A DNA stretch of 63,576 bases, the filler included. It is 3 parts of 3 records of this genome, joined end to end, with 100 filler letters (N's around TTAATTAATTAA, not from the genome) between each part and the next. Parts side by side here need not be neighbours in the genome. Positions count along the whole stretch, not along the records: positions 27,608 to 57,863 come from SRR2962707_1432; 2 more parts are not named here. The stretch is one strand, 5' to 3'. A program made the translations under genes and the position numbers. This document shows, one piece after another, positions 29,438 through 54,289 of this stretch. Below the pieces are notes generated by a model. It saw only the letters and a list, made by a program, of their open reading frames with translations, did no database searches and was not told the origin of the DNA. The stretch's first letter is position 1, and every line of letters starts with the position of its first letter.

Positions 29438-29452
29438 GGAGGGAATATTGTG

Positions 29453-34314: not shown

Positions 34315-35321
34315 GCATTGCTGTTAATCCAGACAAGCTTTCTGACATCAATCAGGTGATGGGTGATGTTCTGATCCGCCATCGTTCTTTCAAAACCGGG
34401 TTGGCACGGCTTGATGAATGCATGCAGTCCTATACGGGCTATGGAGAACCGGTTTGTATGCTTCTGCATGGTCCCTCAGGGGTTGGGAAGTCGACGCTTG
34501 CAAAGGCTTTTCTCGTCGATAACCAGCCTGTCGAAACCCAGGACCGTAAATTGGTTCCGGTTCTGAGCGCTGTAATTCCCGTGCCGGCAACGATGAAGAA
34601 TATGGCGTCCGAGCTTCTCGATAAGCTTGGCGACCCTCTTTCTGATCGCGGCACACTTGAGCAAAGAACCAAAAGGCTACGCAAGCTTCTGCGGGAATGC
34701 GGCACGAAACTGATCATCCTTGATGAGTTTCAGCACTTTATCGATCGCAAGAGCGAACGGGTTATCTTGGATGTTTCAGACTGGCTGAAGAACCTCATTT
34801 CCAACACATCGATCCCGGTGGCTTTGGTTGGGCTTCCATATTCGAGAAATGTGCTATCGGCAAATGAGCAACTGATGCGGCGCTTCAGCTATCAGACCGA
34901 ACTCTCTCCCTTTGATTGGAATGACAAAGCGGAACGCACAGAATTTACCAGGATTCTTGATGCGGTTGATGGAAAGCTTACAGAAATCCTGGGAAGCCGA
35001 AGCGATTTGAAGGGCCAAGGTGTCCGCTGCCATGCTGCAACAAAGGGCCTGATTTCTCTTCTGATCAAGCTACTCCATGGTGCTGCATATGAAGCAGCCA
35101 AATGCAATGCTTCGTCGATAACCGGGCAGCATCTCGCCAAATCGTTCAGGGAGCGCCTTGTACCAGACAAAGGAGTTCTCAATCCGTTTCTCGAAAGTTG
35201 GGATGGGCAAGCAATCGACCCGCTTCCGGAGAGCAGACATATGTCGGTTGCGGGATGCATCCCGTCTCTTGGCGCGAAATCAAGTTCTCTGAACGTCAAC
35301 GAAATCCTCTCGGCAAGGTGA
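34311..35321 (+). CDS. tnsC: TnsC/TniB-like AAA+ ATPase
   Basis: GPSGVGKST, LIILDEFQH and QLMRRF; ATGA overlap with tnsB. Confidence 0.93.
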   Translation: MSIAVNPDKLSDINQVMGDVLIRHRSFKTGLARLDECMQSYTGYGEPVCMLLHGPSGVGKSTLAKAFLVDNQPVETQDRKLVPVLSAVIPVPATMKNMASELLDKLGDPLSDRGTLEQRTKRLRKLLRECGTKLIILDEFQHFIDRKSERVILDVSDWLKNLISNTSIPVALVGLPYSRNVLSANEQLMRRFSYQTELSPFDWNDKAERTEFTRILDAVDGKLTEILGSRSDLKGQGVRCHAATKGLISLLIKLLHGAAYEAAKCNASSITGQHLAKSFRERLVPDKGVLNPFLESWDGQAIDPLPESRHMSVAGCIPSLGAKSSSLNVNEILSAR

Positions 35322-35326
35322 GACAC

Positions 35327-37192
35327 ATGTCAGGTGATCTGTCCCTATTGGTACGTCCTAAGCTGGAAAAGGCTGAGAGCTTCCGGGGTTATCTGCTCAG
35401 GGTTTCGACAGCAAATGGCTATCACAATGCAAATTGGATGCTAAGGCAGCTTGGTATTCACCCACGCACGTTTCTGCCACGTGATGACATTGCAAAGCTA
35501 GCAAGCGCACTAAACCTCCAAGACAACGATCTTTCTAATATGCAGAACCAAATTGTGGGGCCCCGGTGGGTTCGTATCGGGGCGCATGAAGTTCATATCT
35601 GTGCACAGGAAAGGCGTTCTTTTCGCTACTGCCCGCAATGTTTGAGTGAAGGTCCGTACCATCGTGCCTTGTGGGATCTCAAGCCTTTGAGTGCCTGTCC
35701 AAAACACGGGACCTATCTGCTTGAGAGCTGCAGTAAATGTTATCGCCGCGTTGGCTGGGCACGTGAAAACCTTCTGGAGTGTAGCTGCGGTGCGGATTTG
35801 AGGTCGTTTCGGCCGCGTTCGGCACCCGATAAAACACTAGATTTCTGCAGGTTGCTGGAGAAGCGCTTCCAGCGACAACCGGCAGACGAAAACTGCGCCT
35901 TGCATCCGGCATTTCAGAAGTTGAGTTTCACGGATCTTCTGAATCACGCGATGTTTTTGGCCGCCTATATTTCAGGTCGAGGTCGAGGAACCGGTCGACA
36001 GTTGTTTTACAATCTTACCGCTGATGCATTGCGCGAGGTGTTTGATCGGGTTTCTGTAATTCTTGCGGATTGGCCGAATGGATTCCACTTGCTGCTCGAT
36101 GAAGTGCGGCAATTCACCGAACAGGATGTTGAAAAACATGTCGGGCTCGAGGCGGAATTTCGATCGCTCTACACCAATCTGTTTCGCAAGCAGCAGGAGG
36201 TTGAACATCTGCACCTTATCCGTGCTGAGTTTGCCAAATACATTGAAGGTAAATGGTTTGCTGGGTTTGTTGTACCAACCAGCAAGCGATTGTCTGATGA
36301 ATGGTCCCAGGATCAATCGTTTGTTACGGTTGCGGAAGCGGCGCGACGCCTTGGTATTCATCCAAGTATCCTGAGGCGGGATATTGCCGGGGGCAATCTG
36401 GCTGCAACTACTCGAAAGATGCAAAGCAGATGCCTTCGCGTCATAGAAGTCGCGGAGGTTGAGCGTTACCGAAACGCGCGCGAGAACCTGCTTGGAACCA
36501 ATGACGCCCAGGAACTGTTGGGCATTTCAAAGCACCCCTTTATGAAATTGGTGAATGCTGGCCTGATCAAAGCCGTCAAGGGGCCGAGGGTTGATGGTTC
36601 TCAGCACTGGGCTTTCAAGAAGCAGGATATCGATGAGTTCATTGCATCTTTGGCAAAGCAAGCGACTTTCTGTGTGGAGCTGGCTGAGCCTGTGACGTTT
36701 GATAAAGCAGTGCGTCGCTGTACCGCCAAGGGGCTTTGTATCGTTGACCTGATCCAGGGCATACTCGGTGGCGAGTTGAAAGCGCTGAAGCGTTCGAAAA
36801 ATGTGATCAACTTCAAAGATCTGTTCTTCAATGACGCAGACTTCCGAGCGTTTCTTTACAATGAGAAGCGGACCATCAAATGGGCCGTCACCATTCGTGA
36901 AGCTTCTAGGATGCTTGGGTTAAATGAAGAAGCAACACGTAATCTCGTGCACAAGGGGTTTCTTGAAACAACCTCTGTCCCGGTAGATGGGCGTCTTCGG
37001 CGGCAGGTTTCGTTGGATGCCATCGAGCGATTTAAGGCGACTTACGTTTCCGCTTCCAGTCTGGCTGCGTGTCAGAATACTTCGGCGAGATCTGTTGTTG
37101 CGAAGTTTAAGGAGGTAGGGAGTAGTCCGGTCACGGGGCCAGCAATTGATGGCGGTCGTCAGTACTTTTTCAGAATATCTGCGACAGCATAG
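35327..37192 (+). CDS. tniQ: TniQ/TnsD-family target selector with C-terminal tandem HTH repeats
   Basis: ESFRGYLLRVSTANG and Zn motifs CPQC..W..CPKH..CSKC..CSCG; start reassigned to ATG 35327 (621 aa). Confidence 0.9.
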   Translation: MSGDLSLLVRPKLEKAESFRGYLLRVSTANGYHNANWMLRQLGIHPRTFLPRDDIAKLASALNLQDNDLSNMQNQIVGPRWVRIGAHEVHICAQERRSFRYCPQCLSEGPYHRALWDLKPLSACPKHGTYLLESCSKCYRRVGWARENLLECSCGADLRSFRPRSAPDKTLDFCRLLEKRFQRQPADENCALHPAFQKLSFTDLLNHAMFLAAYISGRGRGTGRQLFYNLTADALREVFDRVSVILADWPNGFHLLLDEVRQFTEQDVEKHVGLEAEFRSLYTNLFRKQQEVEHLHLIRAEFAKYIEGKWFAGFVVPTSKRLSDEWSQDQSFVTVAEAARRLGIHPSILRRDIAGGNLAATTRKMQSRCLRVIEVAEVERYRNARENLLGTNDAQELLGISKHPFMKLVNAGLIKAVKGPRVDGSQHWAFKKQDIDEFIASLAKQATFCVELAEPVTFDKAVRRCTAKGLCIVDLIQGILGGELKALKRSKNVINFKDLFFNDADFRAFLYNEKRTIKWAVTIREASRMLGLNEEATRNLVHKGFLETTSVPVDGRLRRQVSLDAIERFKATYVSASSLAACQNTSARSVVAKFKEVGSSPVTGPAIDGGRQYFFRISATA

Positions 37193-37376: not shown

Positions 37377-38522
37377 TCAATTTAAGTTTGCCTCTATGTG
37401 ACTGCTCAATAAGCTGATTGCGCGGTCAGCTTGTTCTTTGTTCGAAAAACGGCCAAAACTAAATCGGATACACTCTGATGCCGTCTCATGGTCAAGACCC
37501 ATCGCTGTTAGCACATGAGAGGGTTCTATCGAACCGGAGGAGCATGCGGATTGTGTTGAAGCCGCTATATGGGGTTGTAGCTGTGCTAAAAGATCCGCGG
37601 CATCTTGACCCGGAAAATGCATCAAGGCATTTCCAGGATGTCGCAGCTTCTGGTTGCCAACTAGCTTAGCAAATTGTTTTTCTTCAAGTTTTTTAACAAA
37701 GTGCTCAGTAATAAGTCTGATGCGTGCTCTTTCAGATGCACCGTAGAGTGAAATCAGTCGGCATGCTTCGCCAAAGCCTGCGATTAGTTCCGTAGGCATT
37801 GTGCCGCCGCGTCTTCCTCCCTGTTGTCCTGCGCCTTTCACAATTGGTTTGACGAGATTTGATGTTCCGGGTCCCGCTAAAAGTGCTCCAACCCCTTTGG
37901 GGCCGTATAGTTTGTGCGCGGAGATGGTTGCAAAAGGGATATCAAGCTCGAGTAAATCAATATCTATCGCGAGAGGAGCTTGAGAGAGGTCCGCATGCAA
38001 GATGACGCCCTTTGACTTACAAATATTTGATATTTTTGAAAGTTCTGTAATTGAACCATTTTCATTGTTTACACCAATTACCGAAACAAGGGCCGTGCTT
38101 TCATTGATTAAATGTTCAACCGCTGAAGGGGCCGGCGCACCATTTTTATCCAACGGAATCTGCCGTAGCTTTAGGCTAGTGGAGTTAGCCTCGTTTCGGA
38201 CCGAATTATGGTCAGCGGCCCCTATTAAGATTTCCTTTTTCCCTGTTTCTGTAGCCACGGCATTTGCGATTTGAAATGCCATTGCGTTTGCTTCACTTGC
38301 ACCTGAAGTGAAGATTACATCTTCAGCTTGAAGACCAAACAACTCTGCAACGTGAGAGGCTGCTGCATCGATTGTCGCGGCCGCTTTCCAACCGAGGATG
38401 TGGTCAGCAGCGTGAGGGTTGGCAAAGTTTGTCAGATATGCGTCCTGCATCACTTTAAGAACGCGATTATCAATTGGGGTTGCTGCCTGATAATCAAGAT
38501 AGATCGTTTCATCAATTTGCAT
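37377..38522 (-). CDS. sspA: Cysteine desulfurase (IscS/DndA/SspA type)
   Basis: IYLDYQAATP, FTSGASEAN, VNNENG, SAHKLYGPKG (PLP Lys) and SACSSGS (catalytic Cys); start reassigned to MQIDETIY; symbol from context. Confidence 0.88.
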   Translation of the reverse strand: MQIDETIYLDYQAATPIDNRVLKVMQDAYLTNFANPHAADHILGWKAAATIDAAASHVAELFGLQAEDVIFTSGASEANAMAFQIANAVATETGKKEILIGAADHNSVRNEANSTSLKLRQIPLDKNGAPAPSAVEHLINESTALVSVIGVNNENGSITELSKISNICKSKGVILHADLSQAPLAIDIDLLELDIPFATISAHKLYGPKGVGALLAGPGTSNLVKPIVKGAGQQGGRRGGTMPTELIAGFGEACRLISLYGASERARIRLITEHFVKKLEEKQFAKLVGNQKLRHPGNALMHFPGQDAADLLAQLQPHIAASTQSACSSGSIEPSHVLTAMGLDHETASECIRFSFGRFSNKEQADRAISLLSSHIEANLN

Positions 38523-38533
38523 GATGCCCTCAA

Positions 38534-38554
38534 TACTGGACGTTATCTCCAGTA
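38534..38554. promoter_or_regulatory. Inverted repeat TACTGGA-N7-TCCAGTA in the sspA/sspB divergent promoter
   Basis: Perfect 7-bp arms in a 77-bp intergenic region. Confidence 0.5.
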
Positions 38555-38599
38555 GCTTGTATAACGTTTTCGTGCTGGATGATATCCCCAGGAGGAAAA

Positions 38600-39538
38600 G
38601 TGAGCGTACAGTATTTAAATGATGCATCATATCGCCCGTGTTTTTCGGGGCACGAAACTTTTCCTTTGCGATACGGTTGGTTGCAAAAGGCGTATTTCGC
38701 GGTTAGCTCTGCTGCTTCCCCCAAGGAAGCTGTCCACATATTTCGTGATCAAGATGCAATCGCCCGTTTTGGTGTCGGCCGAAACATGGTTACCGCAATT
38801 CGCTATTGGGCAACAGCTGCCGGTATAATTGAAGAATTTTCTGATGGGTTATCAGTAAGTTGGCTCGGAGATATGCTTTTTGGTCAAGTTGGTCTAGATC
38901 CTTACCTTGAAGATGACTCTTCTATTTGGTTGTTGCACTGGCATCTGGCTTCTCGTCCGCGGCTGACATCGGTTTATTGGCTGTTTAACGAATATCGTGG
39001 CGGTAGTTTTGTTAGGTCAGATCTGGTTTCTACTTTATTGGAAATAGCGAACGAACATGAATGGAGCAGAGTTGCCTCGACCACAGTAGACCGTGATCTG
39101 CAGTGTTTGCTTAGGACATATATTGGAGGACGAGGTTCAAGTGATGCTGGTGATTCTATCCTGGCCGAACTAGGGCTAATACGTCCTGTCGATAAGCAGC
39201 GTTCCAGACTTTCACGTGGTCGTAAACTAAGTTTGTCGGATCCAATATTTCTCTTTTGTCTCAGGGAGTTTTGGAGGGATGCAGCTGAAGTGCAGAGTTC
39301 GCTCTCATTCGAAAATATTGCGTATTCCCCTGGTTCTCCGGGAAAGGTCTTTCTGTTAGATGAAGAAGATATTGTAGAGCGGCTGGAGCGACTTGAGGAT
39401 GTATCCAAAGGTGCCTTGGTCTGGTCGGAAACTGCAGGGGTTAGACAAGTAATTCGTCGTAACCGATCAAGCACGGAAGATGATCGTGGGATGCTTAAAG
39501 GTGCCCTCTCACTTGCGCGCGGGCTAGAAGCAGCATGA
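38600..39538 (+). CDS. sspB: DUF4007 family protein (SspB-like)
   Basis: FSGHETFPLRYGWLQK, FGVGRNMVTAIRYW, DPYLE..WLLHW and SPGKVFLL; GTG start with SD GGAGG. Confidence 0.88.
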   Translation: MSVQYLNDASYRPCFSGHETFPLRYGWLQKAYFAVSSAASPKEAVHIFRDQDAIARFGVGRNMVTAIRYWATAAGIIEEFSDGLSVSWLGDMLFGQVGLDPYLEDDSSIWLLHWHLASRPRLTSVYWLFNEYRGGSFVRSDLVSTLLEIANEHEWSRVASTTVDRDLQCLLRTYIGGRGSSDAGDSILAELGLIRPVDKQRSRLSRGRKLSLSDPIFLFCLREFWRDAAEVQSSLSFENIAYSPGSPGKVFLLDEEDIVERLERLEDVSKGALVWSETAGVRQVIRRNRSSTEDDRGMLKGALSLARGLEAA

Positions 39539-42500
39539 ATAGAAAAACAGAATTAACTCCTAGATTTCGCCGGTCTGTAAGGATAGATACAGACTACAAG
39601 TCTGCGGTTGCGTTGGACGGGTTTTATTGTCCTGCATCTTTCCAGAATGCGTTAACCTTTATGGCAACGCATATAGCTGAGACGGAACAAGCAGCATTTA
39701 CTTGGACGGGTCCTTACGGTGGTGGAAAGTCAAGTCTTGCGCTCGCCCTCGCATGTCTTTTTGGCGCTCCCAAACCTATCCAAGACCGGGCATCTATTGC
39801 GCTTGGAAAGAGCGTCATCGATGCATTGCAGTCGTCTTTGCCTTTCTTCCCCAGCCAATGGGATGTTATTCCACTGGTTACAGAGCGGAGATCGATTAGC
39901 TCTCAAATTGCCGAATCTCTGAGTATTCCAAAAGAGTCATCTTCGTTATCGATTCTGCGGGAAATTGAAAGTCGAACTAAAGAGCGAGGTCTGCTTCTCA
40001 TCATGGATGAGATGGGGCGAGGTTTAGAGGCGGCTGCGGACGGCGATGGAGATCTTCATCTTCTACAGGATGTTGCAGAGCTGTCTTCAAGAAGTCAGGG
40101 GAGGTTTGTGTTCCTCGGCATTTTGCACCAGGCTTTTGAAGAGTATGCAGAGCGTTTAGGGCGTAGATCCCGTGACGAGTGGGCAAAAATTCAAGGGCGA
40201 TTTGTCGATATATCGATTTCAGTTTCGCTGGAGGAATCTGTCGAGCTTGTTGGGGAGGCGCTTGGGCATCATCGGGCTCTAAGCAAAGCTCTACCGCTTG
40301 CAGACGCATGCGTTGAAGCTATTCGTCCGGCCAGAGCCAAGGCCGATGCGAAGCGTATGGCGGCAAAACTTGCACGCACGGCGCCACTTCACCCATTCAC
40401 AGCATGCCTTCTGGCTCCTATGTCGCGAAGAAGGTTTAGCCAGAATCAGAGGAGTATATTCTCATTCTTAAGTTCGGCTGAGCCATTTGGTTTACAAGAT
40501 GCTTTGGCCAAAGAGGCAATTGACGGCTGCTACTCTCCCCATCTTTTGTGGGATTACTTGAAAGCCAATTTTGAGCCTGCAATCCTATCTTCTCCTGATG
40601 GCAGAAGATGGTCACTTGCACATGATGTGATTGAGCGAGCTACTGCGCGAGGTGCGGTTGAAGCAGAGATCAAAATTCTCAAAACTATTGCAATCCTAGA
40701 TCTACTCAAGGATCGCTCAGGGCTGTCAACAGAACCACAAACTATTGCATTGGCTTTGCAAGCCATTGACGGGTCCGCGCTTGATGCGGCGCTTATAAAC
40801 TTGGAGCGTCAATCGGAGATAGTTTTTAGGAAGCATTCAGGCCATTACTTGCTTTACGCAGGATCAGATTTTGATGTTGAGGCGCGCTTGCAGGAGGTGC
40901 TTTCTGAAACGCGAGATATTGATCTTCGGCTGGTGCGTTCTTTGGCGGACCTGCAGCCAATGTTGGCAAAGCGACATCATGAGAAAACGGGCACTATGCG
41001 CTGGTTCGAAATGTCGATCGAACAGGTTTCTGAACTAGATAATCTGACCCGACCGGATCAGGGCGGCGATATCGTTGGGCGCATAGTGTTTCCATTGCCA
41101 ACAATTGGTGAGACCGAGGGTGAAGTATTTGCCGCGTATGAACGTGCAATAAACCTTGATAACTCATATCCATTGTTCATCGGGCATCACCCAAAATCTT
41201 TGATGGTTTTGGACTTAGTACGTGAACTGTCGGGTCTAAGCAGTTTGGGGGCAAAGTTTCCGGAGCTGAGTGGTGACCCTATCGCGCGACGTGAAATTGA
41301 TTCTCGTGTTACTGAAGTACGCCAAAAGTTAGAGGATAGTCTGAACGGATTTATTGGCGAATGCTTGTGGTATTGCGGTACAAACGAACCGTGCCACCTA
41401 ACGAAAAGTCTCTTAAACGAACGGTTGTCTTCATACGTGGACAAGCTCTTTAGGGCCGGTCCGTGTATCCGAAACGAATTGCTAAATTGCTCCGCTCCAT
41501 CCTCGAATGCCGTTAGCGCCCGTACAAAGCTGATGAAGAGGATGCCTCTCTATGCAAGCGATCCAAACTTAGGGTTTGAAGACAAGAAGTATCCTGCAGA
41601 ACGCGGTTTATATATTTCGCTTCTAAAAGAGACCGGGCTGCATGTAGATGGACGATTTACGCCTCCGAAAGAAGGTGAAGGACTCTACCCTCTGTGGTCT
41701 ATTGCGGACAAAATGCTTTGCGATAACGATCATGGGATGGTTACGGCCGATAAAATAATAAGAGCTTGGGGGGAGGCCCCTATTGGCCTAAAGGCTGGTT
41801 TGGGCCCAGTGTTTTTAATCGCATATGCTCTCTCTCGTCGCTCGTCCGTAGCAATCTATGGAGAGGGTGTTTTCCAGAGTAGCTTCAACGATTTATGTGT
41901 TGAGTTTCTTGCTAGGGACCCCAGAGACATCGGGTTGCGACGTGTTGAGATGGAGGGGTTCATCGGTGACACCCTTGAGGAGCTCGGAGCCCTTCTGAAC
42001 TTGAAAGGGGTAATAGATCCCTTATCGGTTGCGCGGACCATAATAGGTGAGTTCGATGCACTTGTTCCGTGGACGGCGCGAACGCAATCACTTTCCCCGC
42101 AAACGCTTCAAATAAGAGAAATTTTGAAGCGCGCAAGTGATCCGAACAAACTGCTTTTTGATGATTTGCCCCGTCTTACTAAGCCATTGCCAGACGGCAG
42201 TTTCGGTCCCAATGCAACCGCTATCTTGTTAAGAGATGCTTTGGCTGAAATGAGGGCGGCTTATCCCAAAGTTTTGGATGAACTAAAAGACCTCTTGTTG
42301 AGAGAGCTTGATGTTCGAGGGCGGGGCGAAACTGCACTTCAAGAGTTGCGCGATCGTGCAGACAATATTCGTCAAATCGCAGGCGAGTTACGTCTCGAAG
42401 CTTTCGTGGGGCGGTTAACGCAATTCCATGGTACGCGCGAGGATATTGAGGGCATAGTCAGTATTGCCAGCGATAAACTTCCTTCTGATTGGAATGATGT

Positions 42501-42828
42501 AGATTGTGAGCGCGCTGGTGTAGGCATCGTGGAACTGGCTAACTCATTCCTCAAAACTGAAACGATGGCGCGGGTAAAGGGCCGCAAAGATCGGCGCCAT
42601 GCCCTTGCAGTGATGGTTGGCAAGGACTCTGGCCCTCGCCAACTATTCAGAGAGTTTGCGTTGGCGGATGTTGATAAGAAAGACGTCGAGCAGTTGGCAG
42701 GTGTTGTCGACGAAGCGCTTAACAAATCTGACCAAAAGCGGCGTGACATTATTCTGGCTGCACTGATCGAAGTGACATCTAAATACATTGATTCTGATTC
42801 AAAACATCAAGTGGGAGAGCATGTATGA
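39535..42828 (+). CDS. sspC: Large P-loop ATPase (SspC-like)
   Basis: FRRSVRI, TGPYGGGKSS (Walker A), LIMDEMGR (Walker B), EWAKIQGRF and QNQRSIFSFL; ATGA-coupled on both sides. Confidence 0.85.
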   Translation: MNRKTELTPRFRRSVRIDTDYKSAVALDGFYCPASFQNALTFMATHIAETEQAAFTWTGPYGGGKSSLALALACLFGAPKPIQDRASIALGKSVIDALQSSLPFFPSQWDVIPLVTERRSISSQIAESLSIPKESSSLSILREIESRTKERGLLLIMDEMGRGLEAAADGDGDLHLLQDVAELSSRSQGRFVFLGILHQAFEEYAERLGRRSRDEWAKIQGRFVDISISVSLEESVELVGEALGHHRALSKALPLADACVEAIRPARAKADAKRMAAKLARTAPLHPFTACLLAPMSRRRFSQNQRSIFSFLSSAEPFGLQDALAKEAIDGCYSPHLLWDYLKANFEPAILSSPDGRRWSLAHDVIERATARGAVEAEIKILKTIAILDLLKDRSGLSTEPQTIALALQAIDGSALDAALINLERQSEIVFRKHSGHYLLYAGSDFDVEARLQEVLSETRDIDLRLVRSLADLQPMLAKRHHEKTGTMRWFEMSIEQVSELDNLTRPDQGGDIVGRIVFPLPTIGETEGEVFAAYERAINLDNSYPLFIGHHPKSLMVLDLVRELSGLSSLGAKFPELSGDPIARREIDSRVTEVRQKLEDSLNGFIGECLWYCGTNEPCHLTKSLLNERLSSYVDKLFRAGPCIRNELLNCSAPSSNAVSARTKLMKRMPLYASDPNLGFEDKKYPAERGLYISLLKETGLHVDGRFTPPKEGEGLYPLWSIADKMLCDNDHGMVTADKIIRAWGEAPIGLKAGLGPVFLIAYALSRRSSVAIYGEGVFQSSFNDLCVEFLARDPRDIGLRRVEMEGFIGDTLEELGALLNLKGVIDPLSVARTIIGEFDALVPWTARTQSLSPQTLQIREILKRASDPNKLLFDDLPRLTKPLPDGSFGPNATAILLRDALAEMRAAYPKVLDELKDLLLRELDVRGRGETALQELRDRADNIRQIAGELRLEAFVGRLTQFHGTREDIEGIVSIASDKLPSDWNDVDCERAGVGIVELANSFLKTETMARVKGRKDRRHALAVMVGKDSGPRQLFREFALADVDKKDVEQLAGVVDEALNKSDQKRRDIILAALIEVTSKYIDSDSKHQVGEHV

Positions 42829-43658
42829 GTGTGACCCGACATGTTCTTGGTCTGTCTGGTGGTCGGGACAGTGCGGCATTGGCGGTATTTATGCGCCAGC
42901 GTTTCCCTGAGCTCGACATTGACTACTTCTTTACAGACACTGGAAAGGAGTTGCCTGAGGTATACAGTTATCTCACGCGTCTTGAGGGGTATTTGGGTAA
43001 GCCAATTAAGAAGCTGAATCCAAATAGAGACTTTGATTATTGGTTGAAGACGTACAAGAGCTATCTGCCGTCTCCCCAGTCGCGTTGGTGCACGCGACAG
43101 CTTAAGCTTCGACCATTTGAAGAATGGGTACAAAAATTTCTCAAGGCCGGAGATAAGGTGATTTCCTACGTCGCGATTCGAAGTGATGAGGAGTACCGAG
43201 CAGGGTACCAGTCTAATAAGGAGAAGCTACAAGTAAAATTGCCATTCAAGGAAAGTGGAATTGATAAGGCTAGTGTGATCGATATTCTAGAGGGGTCTGG
43301 CCTCGGATTGCCCGACTATTACGATTGGCGGTCACGAAGCGGATGTACTTTCTGCTTCTATCAACAAAAAATTGAATGGGTTCGCCTCCTTGAACGTCAC
43401 CCAAAAAGGTTTGAAGAAGCTAAGCAATACGAAAAAACGGCCCTCGAAAATGGCTCCCCTTTTACATGGAGCCAAGGTGAATCTCTAAAAGATCTAGAGC
43501 AACCTGAACGACAACAACAAATTCGAGAAGAGCATGAGTTGCGCCTTGAGAGAGCGCGTTCACGCTTGCAAGAAAACCCTTTGAGACCGAATACATCAAT
43601 TGATATCGATGACATCTATGGTGATGCATCGAAGGCGTGTCTCGCTTGTCATAAGTAG
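42825..43658 (+). CDS. sspD: PAPS reductase-family ATP pyrophosphatase (SspD-like)
   Basis: PP-loop LSGGRDS, DTGKE, RWCTRQLK, RSGCTFCFYQ and C-terminal CLACHK. Confidence 0.88.
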   Translation: MSVTRHVLGLSGGRDSAALAVFMRQRFPELDIDYFFTDTGKELPEVYSYLTRLEGYLGKPIKKLNPNRDFDYWLKTYKSYLPSPQSRWCTRQLKLRPFEEWVQKFLKAGDKVISYVAIRSDEEYRAGYQSNKEKLQVKLPFKESGIDKASVIDILEGSGLGLPDYYDWRSRSGCTFCFYQQKIEWVRLLERHPKRFEEAKQYEKTALENGSPFTWSQGESLKDLEQPERQQQIREEHELRLERARSRLQENPLRPNTSIDIDDIYGDASKACLACHK

Positions 43659-43688
43659 TTGAAGAGGTTAATACTACTTAAAGTATAA

Positions 43689-44222
43689 GTGGGGGGAGCC
43701 GTGGACTTTTCTAAGCTCGAGAAATTTGCTGATGCTGCTACACAAGAAATCGCCAAATTTTCTCTCGAATTCTGCTTATCTCCAGAGCGCCTAAAGGTGA
43801 CCGATTTTGGTATAGACGGCCTCAACTGGTCGCATATCCCATATGGTGATGAGAGGATTGAGGAAGTGCCAAATGACAAGCGTGGTGTGTATGCGTTTGT
43901 CATTTCGCACGACAACGGTATTTTGCCTCCGCATAAGTATGTTGCGTATATCGGTATTGCAGGGCGCAAATCGGACAGGGCGCTTAGGGAGAGGTACAGG
44001 GATTACCTGTACGTGAACAAAGTTATAAAGCGACCTAAGATTGCGAGGTTGATAGGTACCTGGCATTCAGTCCTGCAATTCTACTTTGCCGCAGTTGAAG
44101 AGAATATAGAGACTGAGGCTCTCGAAGAAATAGAGAGAGCCTTAACTAGTGCTTTATTGCCTCCTTGTTCACAAGGTGACCTTGATGCGGATCTAAAGCA
44201 GAAACGGAGCGCATTCCAATGA
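43689..44222 (+). CDS. GIY-YIG-like nuclease
   Basis: RGVYAF...YVAYIGIAG...LRERYRDY...EEIERAL: GIY, YIG, Arg and Glu in the expected order; start may be GTG 43701. Confidence 0.7.
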   Translation: MGGAVDFSKLEKFADAATQEIAKFSLEFCLSPERLKVTDFGIDGLNWSHIPYGDERIEEVPNDKRGVYAFVISHDNGILPPHKYVAYIGIAGRKSDRALRERYRDYLYVNKVIKRPKIARLIGTWHSVLQFYFAAVEENIETEALEEIERALTSALLPPCSQGDLDADLKQKRSAFQ

Positions 44223-45481
44223 CGAAACAAGTTGAACATAAGTCTATTGTGCTCCCCGCGTTGAGAGGGGTGATGGGAGACTGGGTTTATTACTCTGCTC
44301 TAATGAACGCAGAGGAAATCGGATTGCGTGTATCTTATGCCGATGAGATACATAAAAATAAAAATTTATCTGCAATGATTCAACGCAAGTTGAATGCTGG
44401 TCGTGCCAAGGAAATTGCGACCTACATTCAGGAACAGCCAGAGAGGTTTTTCAATTCAATTGTGGTTGCAACATATGATGGCGAACCCAACTGGTTCGCA
44501 GTTTCGGGTGTGAAACCAAGCGACGATTCGATTTCTGCTGAAGATTTCACTGAAGAAACTCTGAACTCTGTGGGTTTTTTGAAATTCCGAGGTGATGAGA
44601 AACTGTTTGCTATTGATGGACAGCATCGTCTTGCTGGAATTAAGAGAGCGTGTACCGATGGTCTTAAACAAGATCAAATTGATGAACTGTCGGTTATTTT
44701 TGTCGCGCATAAGAAGTCAAAAAGTGGGCTGGAAAGAACGCGTCGCCTGTTCACAACACTGAATAAAACAGCAAAGCCAGTCGTAAAAGGCGATATAATT
44801 GCTCTTGATGAAGACGATGTTATGGCTATTTGTGCTCGCCGTTTGATTGAGGAGACAGAGCTCTTTGGTGGAAGTAGAATAGCATTTGTCGCAACAAATA
44901 ACATGCCAAGCGGGAACTTCGAGAGTCTTACGACGATTGGTAATCTATACGACATACTTTTGACAATTTTTACGAAATTTCCGTCAGATCTAAAGGAATC
45001 TAAGAGAAACCTCCGGAACATCCGTCCTAGCGAAGAACGCTTGGAGGAGTTTTTCAATTTCGCGATGTGCTTCTTTAAAGATCTCGGTAAGAACTTTCCT
45101 GAAATTAATGAGTTTTACAAATCAACCGAAGCTGAAAATATTGTCCGCAAATATCGCGGGCAGCACGGTGGAAGTGCTTTGTTCAGACCAATTGGTATTC
45201 AAATACTTGTCGACGTCATAGCTCGGCTCACTACGAAGCAGGATCTGTCTACTGCAATGCAGGTAGCATCGAAATTGCCACGGAATTTAAATGAGGCACC
45301 TTACTTGGGATTGATGTGGAATGCGAGTAACCGGACTATTTCGAACTCTCATAAGGTTACTCTTAGGGAAGTTCTTTGCCATATGGTTGGGTGCTCAAAA
45401 TACTCTGAGGAAAAATTAACTGAGAGGTATAGAAAAGAAATTTCCCAAGAAGACGCAGTGCTTCCAGAAAAAGTTATATGA
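44219..45481 (+). CDS. DGQHR-domain protein (DndB/ParB-like)
   Basis: IQR, FFNSIVVA, AIDGQHRLAGI and RRLFTTLNKTAKPV; ATGA-coupled to the GIY-YIG gene. Confidence 0.9.
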   Translation: MTKQVEHKSIVLPALRGVMGDWVYYSALMNAEEIGLRVSYADEIHKNKNLSAMIQRKLNAGRAKEIATYIQEQPERFFNSIVVATYDGEPNWFAVSGVKPSDDSISAEDFTEETLNSVGFLKFRGDEKLFAIDGQHRLAGIKRACTDGLKQDQIDELSVIFVAHKKSKSGLERTRRLFTTLNKTAKPVVKGDIIALDEDDVMAICARRLIEETELFGGSRIAFVATNNMPSGNFESLTTIGNLYDILLTIFTKFPSDLKESKRNLRNIRPSEERLEEFFNFAMCFFKDLGKNFPEINEFYKSTEAENIVRKYRGQHGGSALFRPIGIQILVDVIARLTTKQDLSTAMQVASKLPRNLNEAPYLGLMWNASNRTISNSHKVTLREVLCHMVGCSKYSEEKLTERYRKEISQEDAVLPEKVI

Positions 45482-45500
45482 ATATTTATAGGGGGGGGTG

Positions 45501-47948
45501 ATGGTCGAGAAATTGTTTTGGCGATTATTTAATTGTCATTCAGAAGTAGCTGTTCTTGACACAATAAAAGATGAGAATCTTCATCTCTCTCAGAGAAATT
45601 GGAAGCCCTACGGAGGGACTGACAATAACTACGGTGTTGTTGAGAACCAACAAGCGTCACCAATTCCAGCGCTAGTAGAAAAAGTTACTAATAGCATCGA
45701 TGCTATATTAGAACGGCGGTGCCTTGAGGAAGGAATAGACCCAAAATCATCTACTGCTCCCCAGTCTATAAGTGCAGGTATAGACAGGTTTTTTCCTGAT
45801 CACCGTAACTGGGATCTTCCTGCTCAACGCAAGCAACAATCTGAGAAGTTGCAAATCATCGCTGATGGCCCTCGGGGAGAGACTTCACTTATCATCTACG
45901 ACGATGGGGTCGGACAGGCGCCAGAAGACTTTGAACGCACTTTCCTTTCGTTGCTTAGGGGCAACAAAAACGAAATCCATTTTGTCCAGGGTAAGTACAA
46001 TATGGGCGGCGCTGGTGCAGTCGTTTTTTGTGGGAAGCAGAGGTTTCAGCTGATTGCCTCTAAGAGATACGACAGCAGCAGTGAATTTGGCTTCACTTTG
46101 GTTCGCAGGCACCCCCTGAACTCTGTTGAAGAACACAGTCGCAAAAACACATGGTACGAGTATCTAGTAATTGATGGCCGCATACCATCATTTGAAATTG
46201 ATGAACTCGACCTCGGTCTTGCAAACCGCAAGTTTCGAACTGGCAGCATTTTGAAGCTTTACTCATATGATCTGCCATCGGGCTCGCGCTCTGTGATATC
46301 CCGCGACCTAAATCAAAGTTTAAATGAATATCTTTTCCATCCTGCGCTTCCTGTTTTGACGGTGGACACGAAAGAGAGATATCCGGATGACCGCAATTTG
46401 GAGCGTGATCTCTTCGGTCTTAAGAGACGGCTTGAAGATGATGACAGTAAATATGTGGAAGCGTATTTCTCTGATGAGATTAATGATGCGGAACTTGGCG
46501 CTCTAAGGGTCACGTCCTACGTCTTTAAAGCGCGGTCGGATGGTAAGACATCAAAGGAAACCCGGGGTACAATCCAGCGCGAATTCTTCAAGAATAATAT
46601 GGCTGTTGTGTTCTCGATTAATGGTCAGGTGCACGGCCACTTTACGTCAGAATTTATTACGAGATCGCTGAAGTTTCCTATTTTGAAAGACCACCTCTTA
46701 ATTCATGTCGACTGTACAGGTGTCAAAACAAGCGTACGAAACGAACTGTTTATGGCGTCCCGAGACCGGCTGAAGGAGGGCGAAGAAGCTCGCAATTTGC
46801 GAAAAAATATCGCCAGGCTCTTAGTCAACGGGCGTCTCAAGGAAATAAACTCTTCGCGCAAAGCATCCCTGAATATTGAGGGGAATGACGCGCAAGATAT
46901 TTTGCGGAATATGACGAAAAATATGCCGTTGAAGGATGACCTTGCCAAGCTTCTCAATCAAACTTTTCGCTTAGAAGATGATCGAGAAGGTAAACGTCAG
47001 AAGCAGAAATCCAAAAATAAGCCTGAATCTCCAAAGCAAGAAAAGCCCGTTTTTAACCCGCAAAGGTTCCCGTCCACTTTTGAAATTGAAGTTAAGGCAA
47101 CAAACGAGGATGGGACGCCTCTAGTGATACTTCCTTTGGGTGGTTCGAAGAGCGTTCGCTTCTCCACTGACGTCGAAGATCATTATTTTGATCGAGTTTC
47201 TGAGCCGGGAGAGCTCCAGATAGCGGTTTTGGGGCCTGAGCCATCCCGAGATAGTGGGGGTGACCAGCCCGGAGATCTGACTGACATCAAATCGGTACTG
47301 AATGTTGTAAAGTCCAGTCCCGCTTCAGGCTCCATACGGGTTCACATAAACGCTACCGAAGAGCTGAATGTGGGTGATGCTGTTACGGTTCGGGCAGAAC
47401 TTACCCATCCATCCGGCGTTCTTGATCAGTTATTTATTGTTAAGGTAACCGACCCAGAAAAGAAAAAGCCGTCGAAGGATCCTGGTGATACACCAGACGA
47501 CCGAATGGGGCTGCCAGAACCAGTTATGGTTTACAAAGAGCTGAGAGATGGCCTCTCTGCGGATGTGCTGACTTGGGATCGGCTGGATGAAGTGGGTATT
47601 ACCATGTCGCATGAGACGGTGGTACACCCCCTTGCTGATGAGGATGGACTCAGCAAAGTCTATATCAATATGGACAGCTCTGCGCTGTTGAATTATCGCA
47701 GCGCCCTAAAGACAGAGGATGCGATCACCGTTGCAGAAAAACGTTATTTTTCAGCGGTTTATTTTCATACTCTGTTTCTTTTCGCTATTACAAAGAACCG
47801 AAAGTACCAGATTCAGCGTGAAGCAAATGAAACAGATAGCGAGTCTGTCGAAGTCACGGAATACATTTCAGACCTGTTCACCAATGCCTATGCTCAGTTT
47901 CTTCTTAGTTTCGATACGCAAGAACTTATTAGTGCTCTAGAGGCGTGA
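45501..47948 (+). CDS. Large GHKL (HATPase_c / MORC-like) ATPase
   Basis: ALVEKVTNSIDA (N-box), IYDDGVGQ (DxGxG), QGKYNMGGAG (G2) and downstream TGS; 19 nt after the DGQHR stop. Confidence 0.75.
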   Translation: MVEKLFWRLFNCHSEVAVLDTIKDENLHLSQRNWKPYGGTDNNYGVVENQQASPIPALVEKVTNSIDAILERRCLEEGIDPKSSTAPQSISAGIDRFFPDHRNWDLPAQRKQQSEKLQIIADGPRGETSLIIYDDGVGQAPEDFERTFLSLLRGNKNEIHFVQGKYNMGGAGAVVFCGKQRFQLIASKRYDSSSEFGFTLVRRHPLNSVEEHSRKNTWYEYLVIDGRIPSFEIDELDLGLANRKFRTGSILKLYSYDLPSGSRSVISRDLNQSLNEYLFHPALPVLTVDTKERYPDDRNLERDLFGLKRRLEDDDSKYVEAYFSDEINDAELGALRVTSYVFKARSDGKTSKETRGTIQREFFKNNMAVVFSINGQVHGHFTSEFITRSLKFPILKDHLLIHVDCTGVKTSVRNELFMASRDRLKEGEEARNLRKNIARLLVNGRLKEINSSRKASLNIEGNDAQDILRNMTKNMPLKDDLAKLLNQTFRLEDDREGKRQKQKSKNKPESPKQEKPVFNPQRFPSTFEIEVKATNEDGTPLVILPLGGSKSVRFSTDVEDHYFDRVSEPGELQIAVLGPEPSRDSGGDQPGDLTDIKSVLNVVKSSPASGSIRVHINATEELNVGDAVTVRAELTHPSGVLDQLFIVKVTDPEKKKPSKDPGDTPDDRMGLPEPVMVYKELRDGLSADVLTWDRLDEVGITMSHETVVHPLADEDGLSKVYINMDSSALLNYRSALKTEDAITVAEKRYFSAVYFHTLFLFAITKNRKYQIQREANETDSESVEVTEYISDLFTNAYAQFLLSFDTQELISALEA

Positions 47949-48249: not shown

Positions 48250-49714
48250 ATGGGACTGAATGATGTATGGATTTCTTGTGAATGCGGTGATCCTAATTGT
48301 TCTAGATATCAGTTAGATAAACTGGGAATGCACCCATTCTTTGTTCCCTTTGACAAAGCAATATATCAAAACGGGGGCGAAGCTAAGCAAGATCCAGTCT
48401 CCTCTTCCATCCCCTTTGGGATCGCGAAAAACTCATCTTGGGATTTTGATGGCGAAAGAACAGACTTGAATGATCTCTTTGCAGTTTTGTGGGGGATGTA
48501 CCTACGTTGCAGAGGGATCGCCAACGTCGCACTTTTTTCAGAACGCGGGTTCACCATCGAAACTGAAATCAGTGCTCGAGCAGTTATTCCTGTCGATTGG
48601 GGACAAATCTTCGATAGCTGGAATGTAGAGTCACAGAAACTGCTTCTTGGCGAAAACAAGTGTCCACATGCGTGCATTCATTCATGCCCTGTTCTACAAA
48701 GTGTCCAAATGTCCCAAATTGGCGCAGAGGAAACCTTTTGATTTGCCTCCTTGGTTCTCCTCGGTTCAGGAAATTGTGCCACTAGGAAATCGCGATACGT
48801 TTGAACTGCAAACGCGCCAGATGCCGCAATGGACGTGTTTGACCGCTATTGACCAAGGCTTGACTATTGCAGAATTCTCCGAAGCATCAGTTATACGGTT
48901 AAAGTCGCTGCTTGGAGGTAAAATGATGCGTTCCTTTAAGTCTGAGCAGCGGCTGTCTCTGCAGGACGATCAATTAACTAATTCGGTTGATCTATCTTTG
49001 GTCGCAAAAGTACAACACTTACTCGGTTGCATAGACCAAGAGAAGACCAAGACACCCTTTCTTGTCCCGATGGCATCACATCTTGTTGGCATTGGTCGAC
49101 GGTCATTAGTCTCCATAGGTGTCGAGTGTGGACGCGCTATTTTCAACGATGAGCGGATGAGAATAGAAAAAAAGCGTAAGCGCGAAGCAGATTTTTTCAT
49201 GACCGATGTAGCGTGTTTCTGGAATGATGATCTATCCGACGAACGGTTTGAGGAACTAATTGGCGAATTGATAAAAGCAGAAAGAGGAGTTGTTCGTGTT
49301 AGGCAGATTGGAAACACACGAGAAGCTGATGACGGTCGTGATTACATTGCTGAATGGATCACACCGCACCTCTCCAGTATTCTTGATACAGATATAACAA
49401 TCTCAGAAGAAATGCTTAGTCACGCAGTTGACATCATAGTTCAGGTTAAAATTAGAAAGAAGGGAGTGAATCGTAATGATGCAACAGGCCTTCGTGACAC
49501 AATTGAGCATCATGATTGCTCGGGCATGCTTTTCGTCGCTTTTCCGCACGTAACAACAACCTTAAACGATCACCTTCAGAAGATGCGAAAGCAGAGAAAA
49601 TGGTGGATTGACTGGTGGAACAAGGCGGATATTGAAGACCGGTTAAGACGCAATATAGATATAGCAAAAAGATATGAAGATCTGGTCGTTTTGAAGATTG
49701 CACCACATGTGTAA
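48250..49714 (+). pseudogene. Mrr-like PD-(D/E)xK restriction endonuclease-domain gene, probably split by a frameshift near 48640-48660 (ORFs 48250-48741 and 48647-49714)
   Basis: C-terminal LSDERFEELIGELI...ADDGRDYIA...IVQVK; the two ORFs overlap by 95 nt and the second has no evident SD. They could be two genes. Confidence 0.55.
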
Positions 49715-50919: not shown

Positions 50920-51897
50920 TCAGAGTGCAAGCCACACCAAAAGGCCAATGCCGATCAGGCTCGCTACCAGACGTACATAAAAACTGTCACGTAAGCACCT
51001 AGCCAGATGAGCGAAGGGAGTGCTCTGGATCTCGCGCAGCGTCTCTTCCAATCGTGTCGCACTTGATGTCAACGATCGCAGCCTATATTGACGTTCGGTC
51101 AGGACCCGGATATAGGCGCCAAGCGTGTCGCCCGCATTGGCGGGAAGCTGGTCGGGCAGGGTGCTCTCTGGCTCTTCAGTCTGGTAAGCATCTTTCTGAG
51201 TTGGCGGATTGCAGCTGATAAGAAGGCCGCCCAGAAATGCGTAGCGAACGGCATTCTCGTATAGCCAGGACATTTGCTGATCGAGATCCTGAAAGTGCCA
51301 GAAGGCAAGATCAATTTCCTGATCGAGCTGTTTGACATCGTGCCGGCACTTCTCATGAAAGCGATCAAGCGGATAGATCTTGATATTCTCACGCCACTTG
51401 TCCGGAAGACGCAGATCTTCGACCTTCATGGGCAGTGAATAGCTTCTGCTGACCTCTATATCTTCAAAACGAAAGCCACATGACTGCCAGAAGCGGTTGC
51501 GCCGCTCCTTGTTGTCAGGCGTCGCGTCCACATCCGAGATCATGATCGGATGAACAGCATGGTCGGGCCATTGTTGCGCCCATTCGATGCTCTGGCTGAT
51601 GATCCAACTGCCAATACGATAGCTGCGCATGGCTTCAGGCAGAACGATCTCCCCATTGCTGTAGGGGCCGGCAATGCGGACGGCGAGAACACTGCCTTCT
51701 GCAATGTCCAACCAGGTGCGTGAAATATCCGCACCATGCTGTGTCCCCCATCCTTGTTCGCGAAGATCGGTGAAATGGCGACATTTCAATACCAATTTAT
51801 CTTCTGATTGCCCCATCTGGGCAGCAACCCAGCGCTTGGCGGGTTTTTTCGGCTGCTGTGGATCGCGCACTTCAAGTATGAGTTCTTTGAGATGCAT
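50920..51897 (-). CDS. Putative GNAT-fold protein with coiled coil and C-terminal membrane anchor
   Basis: LPEAMRSYRIGSWIISQSIEWA and RRNRFWQSCGF resemble GNAT motifs A and B; hydrophobic tail LVASLIGIGLLVWLAL; start reassigned to MHLKE. Confidence 0.55.
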   Translation of the reverse strand: MHLKELILEVRDPQQPKKPAKRWVAAQMGQSEDKLVLKCRHFTDLREQGWGTQHGADISRTWLDIAEGSVLAVRIAGPYSNGEIVLPEAMRSYRIGSWIISQSIEWAQQWPDHAVHPIMISDVDATPDNKERRNRFWQSCGFRFEDIEVSRSYSLPMKVEDLRLPDKWRENIKIYPLDRFHEKCRHDVKQLDQEIDLAFWHFQDLDQQMSWLYENAVRYAFLGGLLISCNPPTQKDAYQTEEPESTLPDQLPANAGDTLGAYIRVLTERQYRLRSLTSSATRLEETLREIQSTPFAHLARCLRDSFYVRLVASLIGIGLLVWLAL

Positions 51898-51905
51898 CTT
51901 GGAAC

Positions 51906-52107
51906 TGTCAAATGACGCATAAAAATAGAATACTGTCAGAAATTGTTTCCCAGAATATTCTATCAAGCATATGATATATATAAGTTTATTTTGGAATACA
52001 GAAAGTTATAATTTTATATGTCGCTCAGTTTTATTGTTATGTGTCATGGACTTCGAAAATCCGCGATAAAAGTGGCTCGGTTTTATTGATTTATGCGTCA
52101 ATTCACA
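51906..52107. repeat. AT-rich 202-bp segment bounded by 18-bp TGT..ACA inverted repeats, with internal direct repeats
   Basis: TGTCAAATGACGCATAAA vs reverse-complement TGTGAATTGACGCATAAA (16/18); GTCGCTCAGTTTTATTG 52020-52036 vs GTGGCTCGGTTTTATTG 52072-52088 (15/17). Confidence 0.7.
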
Positions 52108-52125
52108 ATTAATAAAGGGAGAAGG

Positions 52126-52881
52126 ATGATGGATAGTATCTGGCTGGTCCTCGGTCTAGCGCTATTTCCCGCCTTGGGGAACTTTAGTGGTGGTCTTGCC
52201 GCGGAGGTATCTCGAGTCACAGGACGCCATCTCAACTACGCTCTTCATGGGGCCGCTGGCCTTGTAATTGCTGTAGTGGCTGTTGAAATCATGCCACGTG
52301 CACTAGATAACCTTTCAGGCTGGGTAATAGCCGTTGCTTTTGCATTGGGTGGTATCGCCTACACAGGTATCGAGAAGTTCGTGGAGTCTCTCTACACGCG
52401 ACGAGGCAAGCAGGAAGACAACAGTCAGACAAGTGTCTGGATGATCTATATCGCAGTGTCCATTGACCTGTTCAGTGATGGTCTTCTGATCGGAGCAGGG
52501 TCGGCAGTCTCGCCGTCGGTTGCAATAGTTCTTGCGACAGGACAAGTCCTCGCGGACGTTCCTGAAGGGTTCGCGACGATCGCCAACATGAAAGACAAAG
52601 GGATTTCCCGCAGCAAACGCCTGTTGATCTCTGCCTCCTTTGCAATTCCTGTACTCTCGGCGACCGTCTTCGCTTACTTCGTGCTCAGGAACCAATCAGA
52701 AGCGCTTAAACTAGCGGCATTGACGTTCACGGCAGGCCTTCTCACGATCGCTGCCATCGAGGACATGATATCCGAGGCTCACGGAAGCGGAGAAGATACC
52801 CACATCTCACCTTTGGCCTTCATCGGCGGCTTTGTCCTGTTCGTTCTGGTATCGGAGGGGTTGGGAAGCGTAATGCCATGA
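52126..52881 (+). CDS. ZIP/ZupT-like divalent metal transporter
   Basis: About 8 TM segments, AVVAVEIMP, IDLFSDGLLIG, LADVPEG and EDMISEAH. Confidence 0.8.
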   Translation: MMDSIWLVLGLALFPALGNFSGGLAAEVSRVTGRHLNYALHGAAGLVIAVVAVEIMPRALDNLSGWVIAVAFALGGIAYTGIEKFVESLYTRRGKQEDNSQTSVWMIYIAVSIDLFSDGLLIGAGSAVSPSVAIVLATGQVLADVPEGFATIANMKDKGISRSKRLLISASFAIPVLSATVFAYFVLRNQSEALKLAALTFTAGLLTIAAIEDMISEAHGSGEDTHISPLAFIGGFVLFVLVSEGLGSVMP

Positions 52882-54074: not shown

Positions 54075-54289
54075 TAGTTTTTTTCCATGTATATTTTTTA
54101 CGTCTGCCAATGGCCGGGACTTTTGTCATCTGTGCAATAGCAGTCGTTATGGAAGCATTCGGCGACTTGTCATCAAAGATGATTGTGATTGCCGGGCATG
54201 CAATCGTCAATCTACTGCCTTTAAATGCTCTATCATGTGTTCGAGCCACGTCTGAATGCATGAAGGCGCTGTATTCGACAGTGAAAGGT

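Follow-up and report, generated by a model that had tools for sequence, protein, structure and literature searches.

A predicted SspABCD phosphorothioation locus with a GHKL ATPase and a GIY-YIG/DGQHR gene pair as candidate partner modules

Known phosphorothioation partners and the present locus

To our knowledge, only a handful of restriction partners are known for defence based on DNA phosphorothioation (PT), namely DndFGH, DndI, PbeABCD, SspE and SspFGH. The subject of this analysis is a locus of seven genes at positions 37377-47948 of a window (the whole stretch of DNA analysed, 63,576 nucleotides (nt) with its filler), where sspA, sspB, sspC and sspD are followed by genes for a putative GIY-YIG nuclease (gene 5), a DGQHR protein and a predicted GHKL ATPase. 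Among the described partners, SspE and DndI each combine a ParB-fold NTPase with a fused HNH nickase; they sense PT, by which their activity is set (PMC11662687). In the SspFGH system, a Walker A motif is present in SspF and the C terminus of SspH resembles FtsK, and frequencies of 7.3% for SspFGH and 7.4% for SspE were reported (PMC8092258). The same source counted 2,211 of 2,678 sspBCD clusters without sspE and sspFGH, and asked about further partners. The reading preferred here, in which we place slightly better than even confidence, is that the locus combines an SspABCD module with two accessory modules that assort independently, a split SspE/DndI-like pair and a GHKL clamp or sensor, brought together here in one transcription unit.

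With SspABCD-SspE, the locus shares the same sspA-sspD genes and a slot next to sspD that is likewise occupied by a predicted nuclease and a ParB-fold protein bearing a DGQ(H/Q)R motif. It differs in having no DUF262/DUF1524 protein, in a ParB-fold protein of the DndB/DGQHR family, in a nuclease candidate of the GIY-YIG rather than the HNH type that is encoded as a separate polypeptide, and in the extra GHKL ATPase. The IscS-DndBCDE-DndI system is similar in that DndI joins a ParB-fold ATPase to an HNH nickase, and a gene 5/DGQHR pair stands by dnd genes in two other loci (L103 and L108, see below), whereas DndI is one fused protein with another nuclease fold, and none of the three downstream proteins matches the DndI model. 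As an alternative multi-gene sspBCD partner able to coexist with others, SspFGH also offers a parallel (PMC8092258), but the present locus has no PADLOC matches to SspF, SspG or SspH.

The four upstream genes leave little doubt about the type of modification cluster, as the sequence-only reading had proposed: PADLOC models match all four at E 1e-96 to 0, and the desulfurase SspA, the DUF4007 protein SspB, the ATPase SspC and the PAPS-reductase-like SspD are clustered, so that by gene content the locus is a predicted SspABCD module for single-strand DNA phosphorothioation. On the minus strand, sspA (37377-38630) encodes a cysteine desulfurase of 417 amino acids (aa; PADLOC SspA E 9.2e-101, DndA E 1.3e-96; Pfam Aminotran_5 E 1.6e-58). 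The other three genes lie on the plus strand: sspB at 38579-39538 (319 aa; PADLOC SspB E 2e-96, Pfam DUF4007 E 2e-77), sspC at 39535-42828, encoding a large BrxC-like ATPase of 1097 aa (PADLOC SspC E 0, 1060.7 bits; BrxC E 7e-98), and sspD at 42825-43658 (277 aa; PADLOC SspD E 4.4e-136, Pfam PAPS_reduct E 8.4e-07). Overlaps of 4 nt join sspB to sspC and sspC to sspD, whereas the open reading frames (ORFs) of sspA and sspB are arranged head-to-head and overlap by 52 nt (38579-38630). Since the SspA family match opens only at residue 43-44, the true start of sspA probably lies further downstream within the ORF, with a divergent promoter probably located inside 38579-38630. SspC, SspD and SspB are homologous to the BrxC, PAPS reductase and DUF4007 parts of BREX type 4 (PMC12839542), but the Ssp models score far above the Brx models, for which weaker BrxC and BrxP matches were obtained, and neither pglZ nor brxL was detected among the seven cluster proteins and 19 other ORFs of at least 150 aa, in agreement with what had been read from the letters.

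The three downstream proteins are not matched by the PADLOC models of SspE, SspF/G/H, PbeA-D or DndF/G/H. More specifically, none of them carries the fusion of DUF262 (GmrSD_N) to a DUF1524 (GmrSD_C) HNH domain that defines SspE, none matches an SspFGH component at E 0.01 or better, and the window proteins do not include the PbeA PLD-helicase, the DndD-like ABC ATPase PbeC or their partners. The same models do recognise control loci, namely an SspE locus (L062; SspE E 0, with both GmrSD_N and GmrSD_C matched in Pfam), an SspFGH locus (L092; SspF 4.6e-232, SspG 5.2e-215, SspH 0) and two Pbe loci (L040 and L087; PbeA E 1e-185 or better, PbeC E 1e-49 or better), and the claim that no such partner is recognisable downstream is thereby sustained. 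An identity of the GHKL protein with SspH or SspF was considered and abandoned, as there is no PADLOC match and the Walker A motif of SspF and the FtsK-like end of SspH are different (PMC8092258). As to the literature, no description was found of a GHKL, MORC or HATPase partner of ssp genes, nor of a DGQHR plus GIY-YIG pair, and supplements may list such neighbourhoods; the text of four comparative papers (PMC10853773, PMC12914056, PMC12065111 and PMC12839542) makes no mention of a GHKL ssp partner or of the pair. Pairs of PbeA-like and PbeC-like genes were seen by bacterial sspBCD in L040 (13366-17896) and L087 (10864-15305), and by dndBCDEA in L103 (10874-15041).

The GHKL gene and the gene 5/DGQHR pair

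The last gene of the cluster (45498-47948, plus strand) was called from a GTG and encodes 816 aa; its start is likely the ATG at 45501, the gap from the DGQHR gene being 16 nt to the GTG and 19 nt to the ATG. From its AlphaFold (AF2) model (pLDDT 81.1, pTM 0.74), the protein belongs to the GHKL ATPases that have a transducer domain. Behind the GHKL and transducer part (residues ~40-459) come a helical linker, a beta domain of Ig-like type at 522-653 and another beta region, and the C-terminal domain is helical. Fold comparison of residues 40-459 gave Z values of 12-18 across GRP94, SMCHD1, MORC, MutL and Topo II/VI (GRP94 18.0, SMCHD1 16.2, MORC3 15.7, MORC2 15.1, MutL 14.4), Foldseek returned Hsp90, Topo VI-B and GyrB at E ~1e-9, and the Bergerat motifs are conserved as E61/N65/D68 (ExxxNxxD), D135/G137/G139 (DxGxG) and G165/G170 in a Gly-rich lid. 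The motifs, the lid and the transducer domain are those of the GHKL superfamily. At the level of sequence, Pfam HATPase_c_3 stays below its cutoff (20.5 vs 25 bits), the family profile detects no chain among PDB sequences (best E 0.26) and PHROGs gives no match. The likeness to Hsp90/HtpG, MORC, SMCHD1, MutL and Topo VI-B is therefore one of the fold of residues 40-459 and of the Bergerat motifs, with matches tied across the MORC, MutL and Hsp90 families. The C-terminal half appears to differ from these proteins: it has an Ig-like part and a helical end, within the full-length model it matches only Ig-like domains (S-layer Ig-like domains, Z ~8.5, for 522-653), and no MutL-type endonuclease domain was seen there. 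A further difference is the linkage specific to sspBCD.

Relatives of the GHKL protein are numerous: of 8,000 candidates that were scored, 2,747 proteins reach E 0.001 or better, a threshold also reached by 1,835 representatives of 50%-identity clusters, and each name given by the sources is "hypothetical protein". Among one-genome-per-species contigs, 543 of 562 pattern matches (543 species genomes) encode a GHKL relative. The best 80 of these 543, at 50-80% identity, were analysed as related loci, in which genes were called as the longest ORFs of at least 90 aa and clustered by blastp; in one of them (L065) no GHKL ORF was called, leaving 79 loci for counting. Where the flanks of the GHKL gene extend for 8 kb or more in each direction, sspB/C/D were present in 52 of 53 loci, the exception being L014, and with shorter flanks they were seen in 11 of 26. 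The distance between the GHKL gene and the ssp genes has a median of 2050 nt, and in 13 of 63 cases the two are directly adjacent. Three close homologues on plasmids of Hymenobacter, Ensifer and Devosia all stand beside sspBCD.

Gene 5 (43689-44222, plus strand, GTG start, 177 aa) begins 30 nt after sspD and had no match in Pfam, including its GIY-YIG model, PADLOC, NCBIfam or PHROGs. In an alignment of 21 sequences, G66, Y68, Y87, G89, R102, Y106, R115 and E149 are invariant, among which G66-x-Y68, Y87-x-G89, R102 and E149 form a GIY-YIG signature. A fold search with its AF2 model (pLDDT 80.7) placed GIY-YIG nucleases in all of the best seven of 48,161 chains (Z 5.3-7.8, the next row having 4.4), with T4 EndoII at the top (Z 7.8, root-mean-square deviation 3.0, 103 residues aligned), followed by the plant Grx N-domain and the UvrC N-domain (7.3 each), I-TevI (6.4), PD-T4-3 (6.0), Eco29kI (5.8) and Hpy188I (5.3). 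Foldseek with the same model returned nothing at E 0.001 or better from the PDB, and the family profile picks up UvrC at its GIY-YIG domain. With the hairpin, the arginine, the catalytic glutamate and the alpha/beta fold all in place in the model, gene 5 is best described as encoding a GIY-YIG protein and a candidate nuclease.

The gene that follows (44219-45481, plus strand) shares an ATGA with the stop of gene 5, a 4-nt overlap, and encodes a DGQHR protein of 420 aa from the ParB superfamily, DndB-like in its Pfam assignment (PF14072 DndB, E 6.6e-29, 101.5 bits against a cutoff of 29.1) and matched by TIGR03187 DGQHR (E 3.6e-36). Its D133-G-Q-H-R137 motif is invariant in 23 sequences, and its profile found nothing usable among PDB sequences. 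It has in common with DndB and DpdB the DGQHR domain and with DndB the Pfam family, but it scores only 60.6 bits against the DndB equivalog TIGR03233 (cutoff 328), does not reach the equivalog cutoff for any of DndB, DGQHR_dnd_1 and DpdB, and differs from DndB in being encoded downstream of sspD, always with a GIY-YIG gene, and in L103 alongside a true DndB. A DGQHR protein confined to genomes with PT was already noted in a profiling study (PMC3226654). With these, the seven ORFs and their junctions agree in position, overlap and gap with what the sequence-only reading had described.

Counted over the GHKL-selected loci together with the window, all 21 loci with both genes have gene 5 directly 5' of the DGQHR gene and in the same orientation, and the two ORFs overlap in 18 of the 21. 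Two further loci have a divergent DGQHR gene without a called gene 5; in one (L021), the small ORF 5' of the DGQHR gene matches Pfam GIY-YIG itself (35.7 bits vs a cutoff of 22.6). Five further loci with the pair came from beyond the GHKL-selected set; in 5 of 5 it stands by PT genes, with no GHKL gene in the stretch fetched. It adjoins sspD in L085 and L107, the whole genomes of which (G086 and G675) gave no GHKL match, and lies 17 kb from sspD in L104. In L103 the pair stands by dndBCDEA, where a canonical DndB is also encoded (E 1.7e-151) and a DndI-type gene is nearby (PADLOC Orf5 E 4.7e-212), and in L108 it comes after dndC-dndD-dndE. Three ORFs of 609, 504 and 1771 aa lie between the pair and sspD in L104, and are SspF/G/H-like by size alone; in L108, a 519-aa protein with a DndE-like N terminus and a HerA/FtsK ATPase, similar to the DndH C terminus, is encoded between dndD and the pair (8041-9600).

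These neighbourhoods bear on two claims of the sequence-only reading. The expected linkage to PT genes is confirmed both for the GHKL gene in well-flanked loci and for the pair in the five further loci, by ssp or dnd genes. The claim that the three downstream genes form a single effector module does not hold, since 57 of the 79 loci have the GHKL gene but neither gene 5 nor the DGQHR gene, the pair being present in the other 22, and since the pair occurs without GHKL by ssp genes in three loci and by dnd genes in two. The GIY-YIG, DGQHR and GHKL genes are thus two modules and not one obligate module. Where both occur, a joint operon is common: of 23 such loci, 20 have the pair directly against the GHKL gene, with no intervening ORF, and 21 have the two on one strand, the pair coming either before or after GHKL.

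How the GHKL gene is distributed over Ssp systems was followed through SspD. The genome nearest to the window's own (G001) had no GHKL match. Two samples of 401 genomes each were drawn, one from the phylum of that nearest genome and one from the phylum to which the genome with L031 belongs. In the first, SspD was found in 15 genomes and GHKL in none of these, with a positive control recovered in 4 of 4; in the second, SspD was found in 16, seed included, and GHKL in 2 of the 15 other than the seed. A frequency of about 2 in 30 Ssp systems is of the same order as the percentages reported for SspFGH and SspE. On an SspD tree made from 38 of 60 GHKL-linked sequences (called at 240-330 aa) and 12 from GHKL-negative genomes, GHKL-positive and GHKL-negative members interleave, with 10 label changes, a number as low as in 125 of 500 shuffles. 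SspE and SspFGH are likewise unclustered (PMC8092258). The rarity of GHKL among genomes with SspD and the interleaving on the tree point to an accessory that is gained and lost, and the idea that it is a core subunit of the modification machinery was dropped, since it was not found in 28 of 30 SspD-positive sampled genomes.

Other occupants of the slot and genomic surroundings

The position next to sspD is also filled by other genes in the related loci. In 3 GHKL loci the occupant is a canonical SspE. A DUF262-only protein occurs there as well, accompanied by a protein kinase in 13 loci and by SIR2 in 5, and about 10 loci have a double-HATPase "sensor histidine kinase" next to a 646-aa protein that belongs to no known family; none of the recurring cassettes tallied was present in 14 of the 53 loci with full flanks. 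Between the profiles of the DGQHR and DUF262-only proteins, hhalign gives a weak alignment of 104 columns over the DGQ(H/Q)R core (E 1.8e-4, probability 48%). This suggests a recurring pattern in which a ParB-fold reader is combined with an interchangeable effector (HNH, GIY-YIG, kinase or SIR2).

Some details of these cassettes can be added. The DUF262-only protein is of ~366 aa and NsnA-like in PADLOC (E 1.8e-36). Its pairing is located between sspD and GHKL in L009, L018, L023, L027, L034, L042, L045, L051, L060 and others, and it was also seen without GHKL in L086. The "sensor histidine kinase" is a protein of ~800 aa with the domains HATPase_c_3, HEF_HK and HATPase_c; together with its ~646-aa companion it stands beside sspBCD and GHKL in L004, L006, L012, L017, L026, L036 and L037, and also in the plasmid loci L081 and L105.

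As to the window itself, linkers of the form N-TTAATTAATTAA-N, with stops in six frames, at 27508-27607 and 57864-57963 join three contigs, and the contig of the cluster extends from 27608 to 57863 (30.3 kb). The first contig has a guanine-cytosine (GC) content of ~0.60-0.64, against ~0.43-0.53 for the middle contig and ~0.56-0.57 for the third. Because the flanks are other contigs, this contrast is an artefact of the joining and is uninformative about an island, and a "low-GC genomic island" around the cluster was discarded.

Directly 5' of the ssp cluster and on the same contig there is a block of Tn7-like transposition genes on the plus strand (31664-37192), comprising tnsA (31664-32311; Pfam Tn7_TnsA-like_N E 1e-13), tnsB (32290-34314; Pfam Mu-transpos_C and rve), tnsC/tniB (34311-35321; Pfam TniB E 1.7e-30) and tniQ with a C-terminal HTH (35102-37192; Pfam TniQ E 2.4e-16 and HTH_17). 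By their Pfam matches, these are the genes of a Tn7-like transposon, with a tniQ/tnsD-type selector. The earlier proposal that such an element carries the cluster is borne out as far as these genes go, but no transposon ends were found for it. Long inverted repeats and k-mer recurrence near tnsA gave nothing convincing, TGT-anchored end pairs gave a single weak one (19/26), a candidate Tn7 end motif was not more frequent than in shuffles, and the repeats 5' of a Fic gene proved to be only palindromic operator-like sites. As the contig stops at 57863, one end may lie beyond it. Homologues of the Tns proteins were present in 0 of the 80 related loci, so that carriage by Tn7-like genes is specific to the window's contig.

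Just 3' of the GHKL gene, a gene for an Mrr-like restriction endonuclease appears split over two frames (48250-49714, plus strand), with Pfam Mrr_cat (E 2.8e-05) on the ORF at 48647-49714. Mrr-like homologues of 467 and 486 aa directly follow GHKL in L047 and L052; residues 62-122 of such a homologue match the frame of the ORF at 48250-48741 and residues 275-486 the ORF at 48647-49714. Judged from the reading frames, the split gene would be either a pseudogene or the product of a sequencing error. Further along, metal-related genes at 50920-57269 (two ZIP-family ORFs, a multicopper oxidase and a DtxR-type repressor) may be transposon cargo. On the other side, a Fic/DOC gene with a DUF4172 domain (29450-30559) is preceded by two near-identical palindromes, AAATGTC...GACATTT, 40 nt apart at 29292-29380, which look like an operator. 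The third contig (57964-63576) opens with a (TG)n run; one of its ORFs (58832-59350) has a CRAL/TRIO domain (E 1.6e-25), and another, of 1185 aa, has no Pfam match. This contig looks eukaryote-like, and the assembly may accordingly be mixed.

Possible roles of the two modules

According to the reading preferred here, gene 5 and the DGQHR protein would be a translationally coupled pair and a two-polypeptide analogue of SspE and DndI. In these two proteins, a ParB-fold NTPase with a DGQQR motif reads PT status and gates the fused HNH nickase. By analogy, the DGQHR ParB-fold protein would physically associate with the product of gene 5, bind DNA and nucleotide, and gate, presumably through PT sensing, the separate GIY-YIG nuclease, which would nick or cut invading DNA and in this way act against phages. 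The GHKL protein would be an ATP-driven dimerising clamp or sensor and a further Ssp-specific partner, which could restrict alone or support the neighbouring cassette. Going beyond this, it is conceivable, though we hold it only tentatively and with considerable doubt, that the GHKL protein represents a class of its own among Ssp restriction partners, the third after SspE and SspFGH, that is, an Hsp90/MORC-like DNA clamp driven by ATP that would read single-strand PT marks and either block unmarked DNA or license swappable ParB-fold cassettes, with GIY-YIG in this locus and kinase or SIR2 elsewhere.

Several observations weigh against these proposals. The gene calls in the related loci are crude. 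Two distant GHKL homologues (26-27% identity) on plasmids of Haladaptatus and Pontibacillus are not near ssp genes, and only 2 of 30 SspD-positive sampled genomes hold GHKL. The frequent abutting of pair and GHKL gene fits a joint machine equally well. No nuclease domain was recognisable in the GHKL protein, as judged from the full-length model, within which alone the C-terminal half was seen. An hhalign comparison of the DGQHR protein with one SspE sequence covered 13 columns around the motif with a probability of 1.7%. In the alignment of gene 5, the clade of the window has Ser or Cys in place of the Asn that most members have after the catalytic Glu, which we take to be a residue of the GIY-YIG family. 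Finally, the best named match of the DGQHR protein is DndB, and DndB is a transcriptional regulator of PT level (PMC4507180, PMC12704722), so that the DGQHR protein may instead be regulatory.

If GIY-YIG, DGQHR and GHKL were instead the parts of a single PT-dependent effector that functions only with all three present, their arrangement on one strand in the window, with gaps of -4 and 16-19 nt, would be readily understood, and so would the close contact and shared strand of pair and GHKL gene in most of the 23 loci and the separate operon that the trio forms convergent to sspBCD in L031, L032, L057 and L068. We consider such an obligate trio unlikely, given that most loci have GHKL by sspBCD without the pair, that more than a quarter of the full-flank loci have no tallied cassette at all (14/53), among them L011, L020, L063 and L072, where GHKL is seen next to ssp genes, and that the pair does without GHKL in L085, L103, L104, L107 and L108. 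The opposite view, that neither component restricts, would make the DGQHR protein a DndB-like regulator of PT level and GHKL an accessory of modification that loads, chaperones or regulates SspBCD. The Pfam DndB score above cutoff, the description of DndB as an ATP-dependent repressor of dnd genes (PMC12704722), the presence of GHKL with sspBCD in nearly all well-flanked loci, its lack of a recognisable nuclease fold and the Hsp90-type proteins at the top of its fold matches all speak in that direction. Nevertheless, the DGQHR gene is strictly paired with a nuclease-fold gene (21/21), the pair coexists with a canonical DndB in L103 and the DndB equivalog is far under its cutoff, while GHKL, with its scarcity in SspD-positive genomes and its interleaving on the SspD tree, does not behave like a core subunit, and sspBCD with iscS make protective PT marks without any such gene (PMC8092258). 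All in all, a purely regulatory and accessory role seems quite improbable to us.

The downstream genes could also be PT-independent defence genes that merely share a defence island with sspABCD: defence genes cluster, one of Mrr type comes next in the window, distant GHKL relatives stand by themselves, and DndFGH has been argued to be functionally decoupled from modification (PMC10853773). To such a mere sharing of an island we give very little credence, because the linkage is specific and recurs across phyla, for GHKL (52/53) as well as for the pair by ssp or dnd genes (5/5), and the spacing is operon-like.

Under the preferred reading, then, the locus provides two candidate anti-phage restriction partners, predicted from sequence and conserved across phyla, the GHKL ATPase and the GIY-YIG/DGQHR pair. 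Restriction-modification based on PT was already known, and what would be new here are the partner modules. If GHKL were indeed a third partner class, it would account for part of the sspBCD clusters that have neither sspE nor sspFGH, and the rule of a ParB-fold reader with an interchangeable effector would be directly testable in Escherichia coli.

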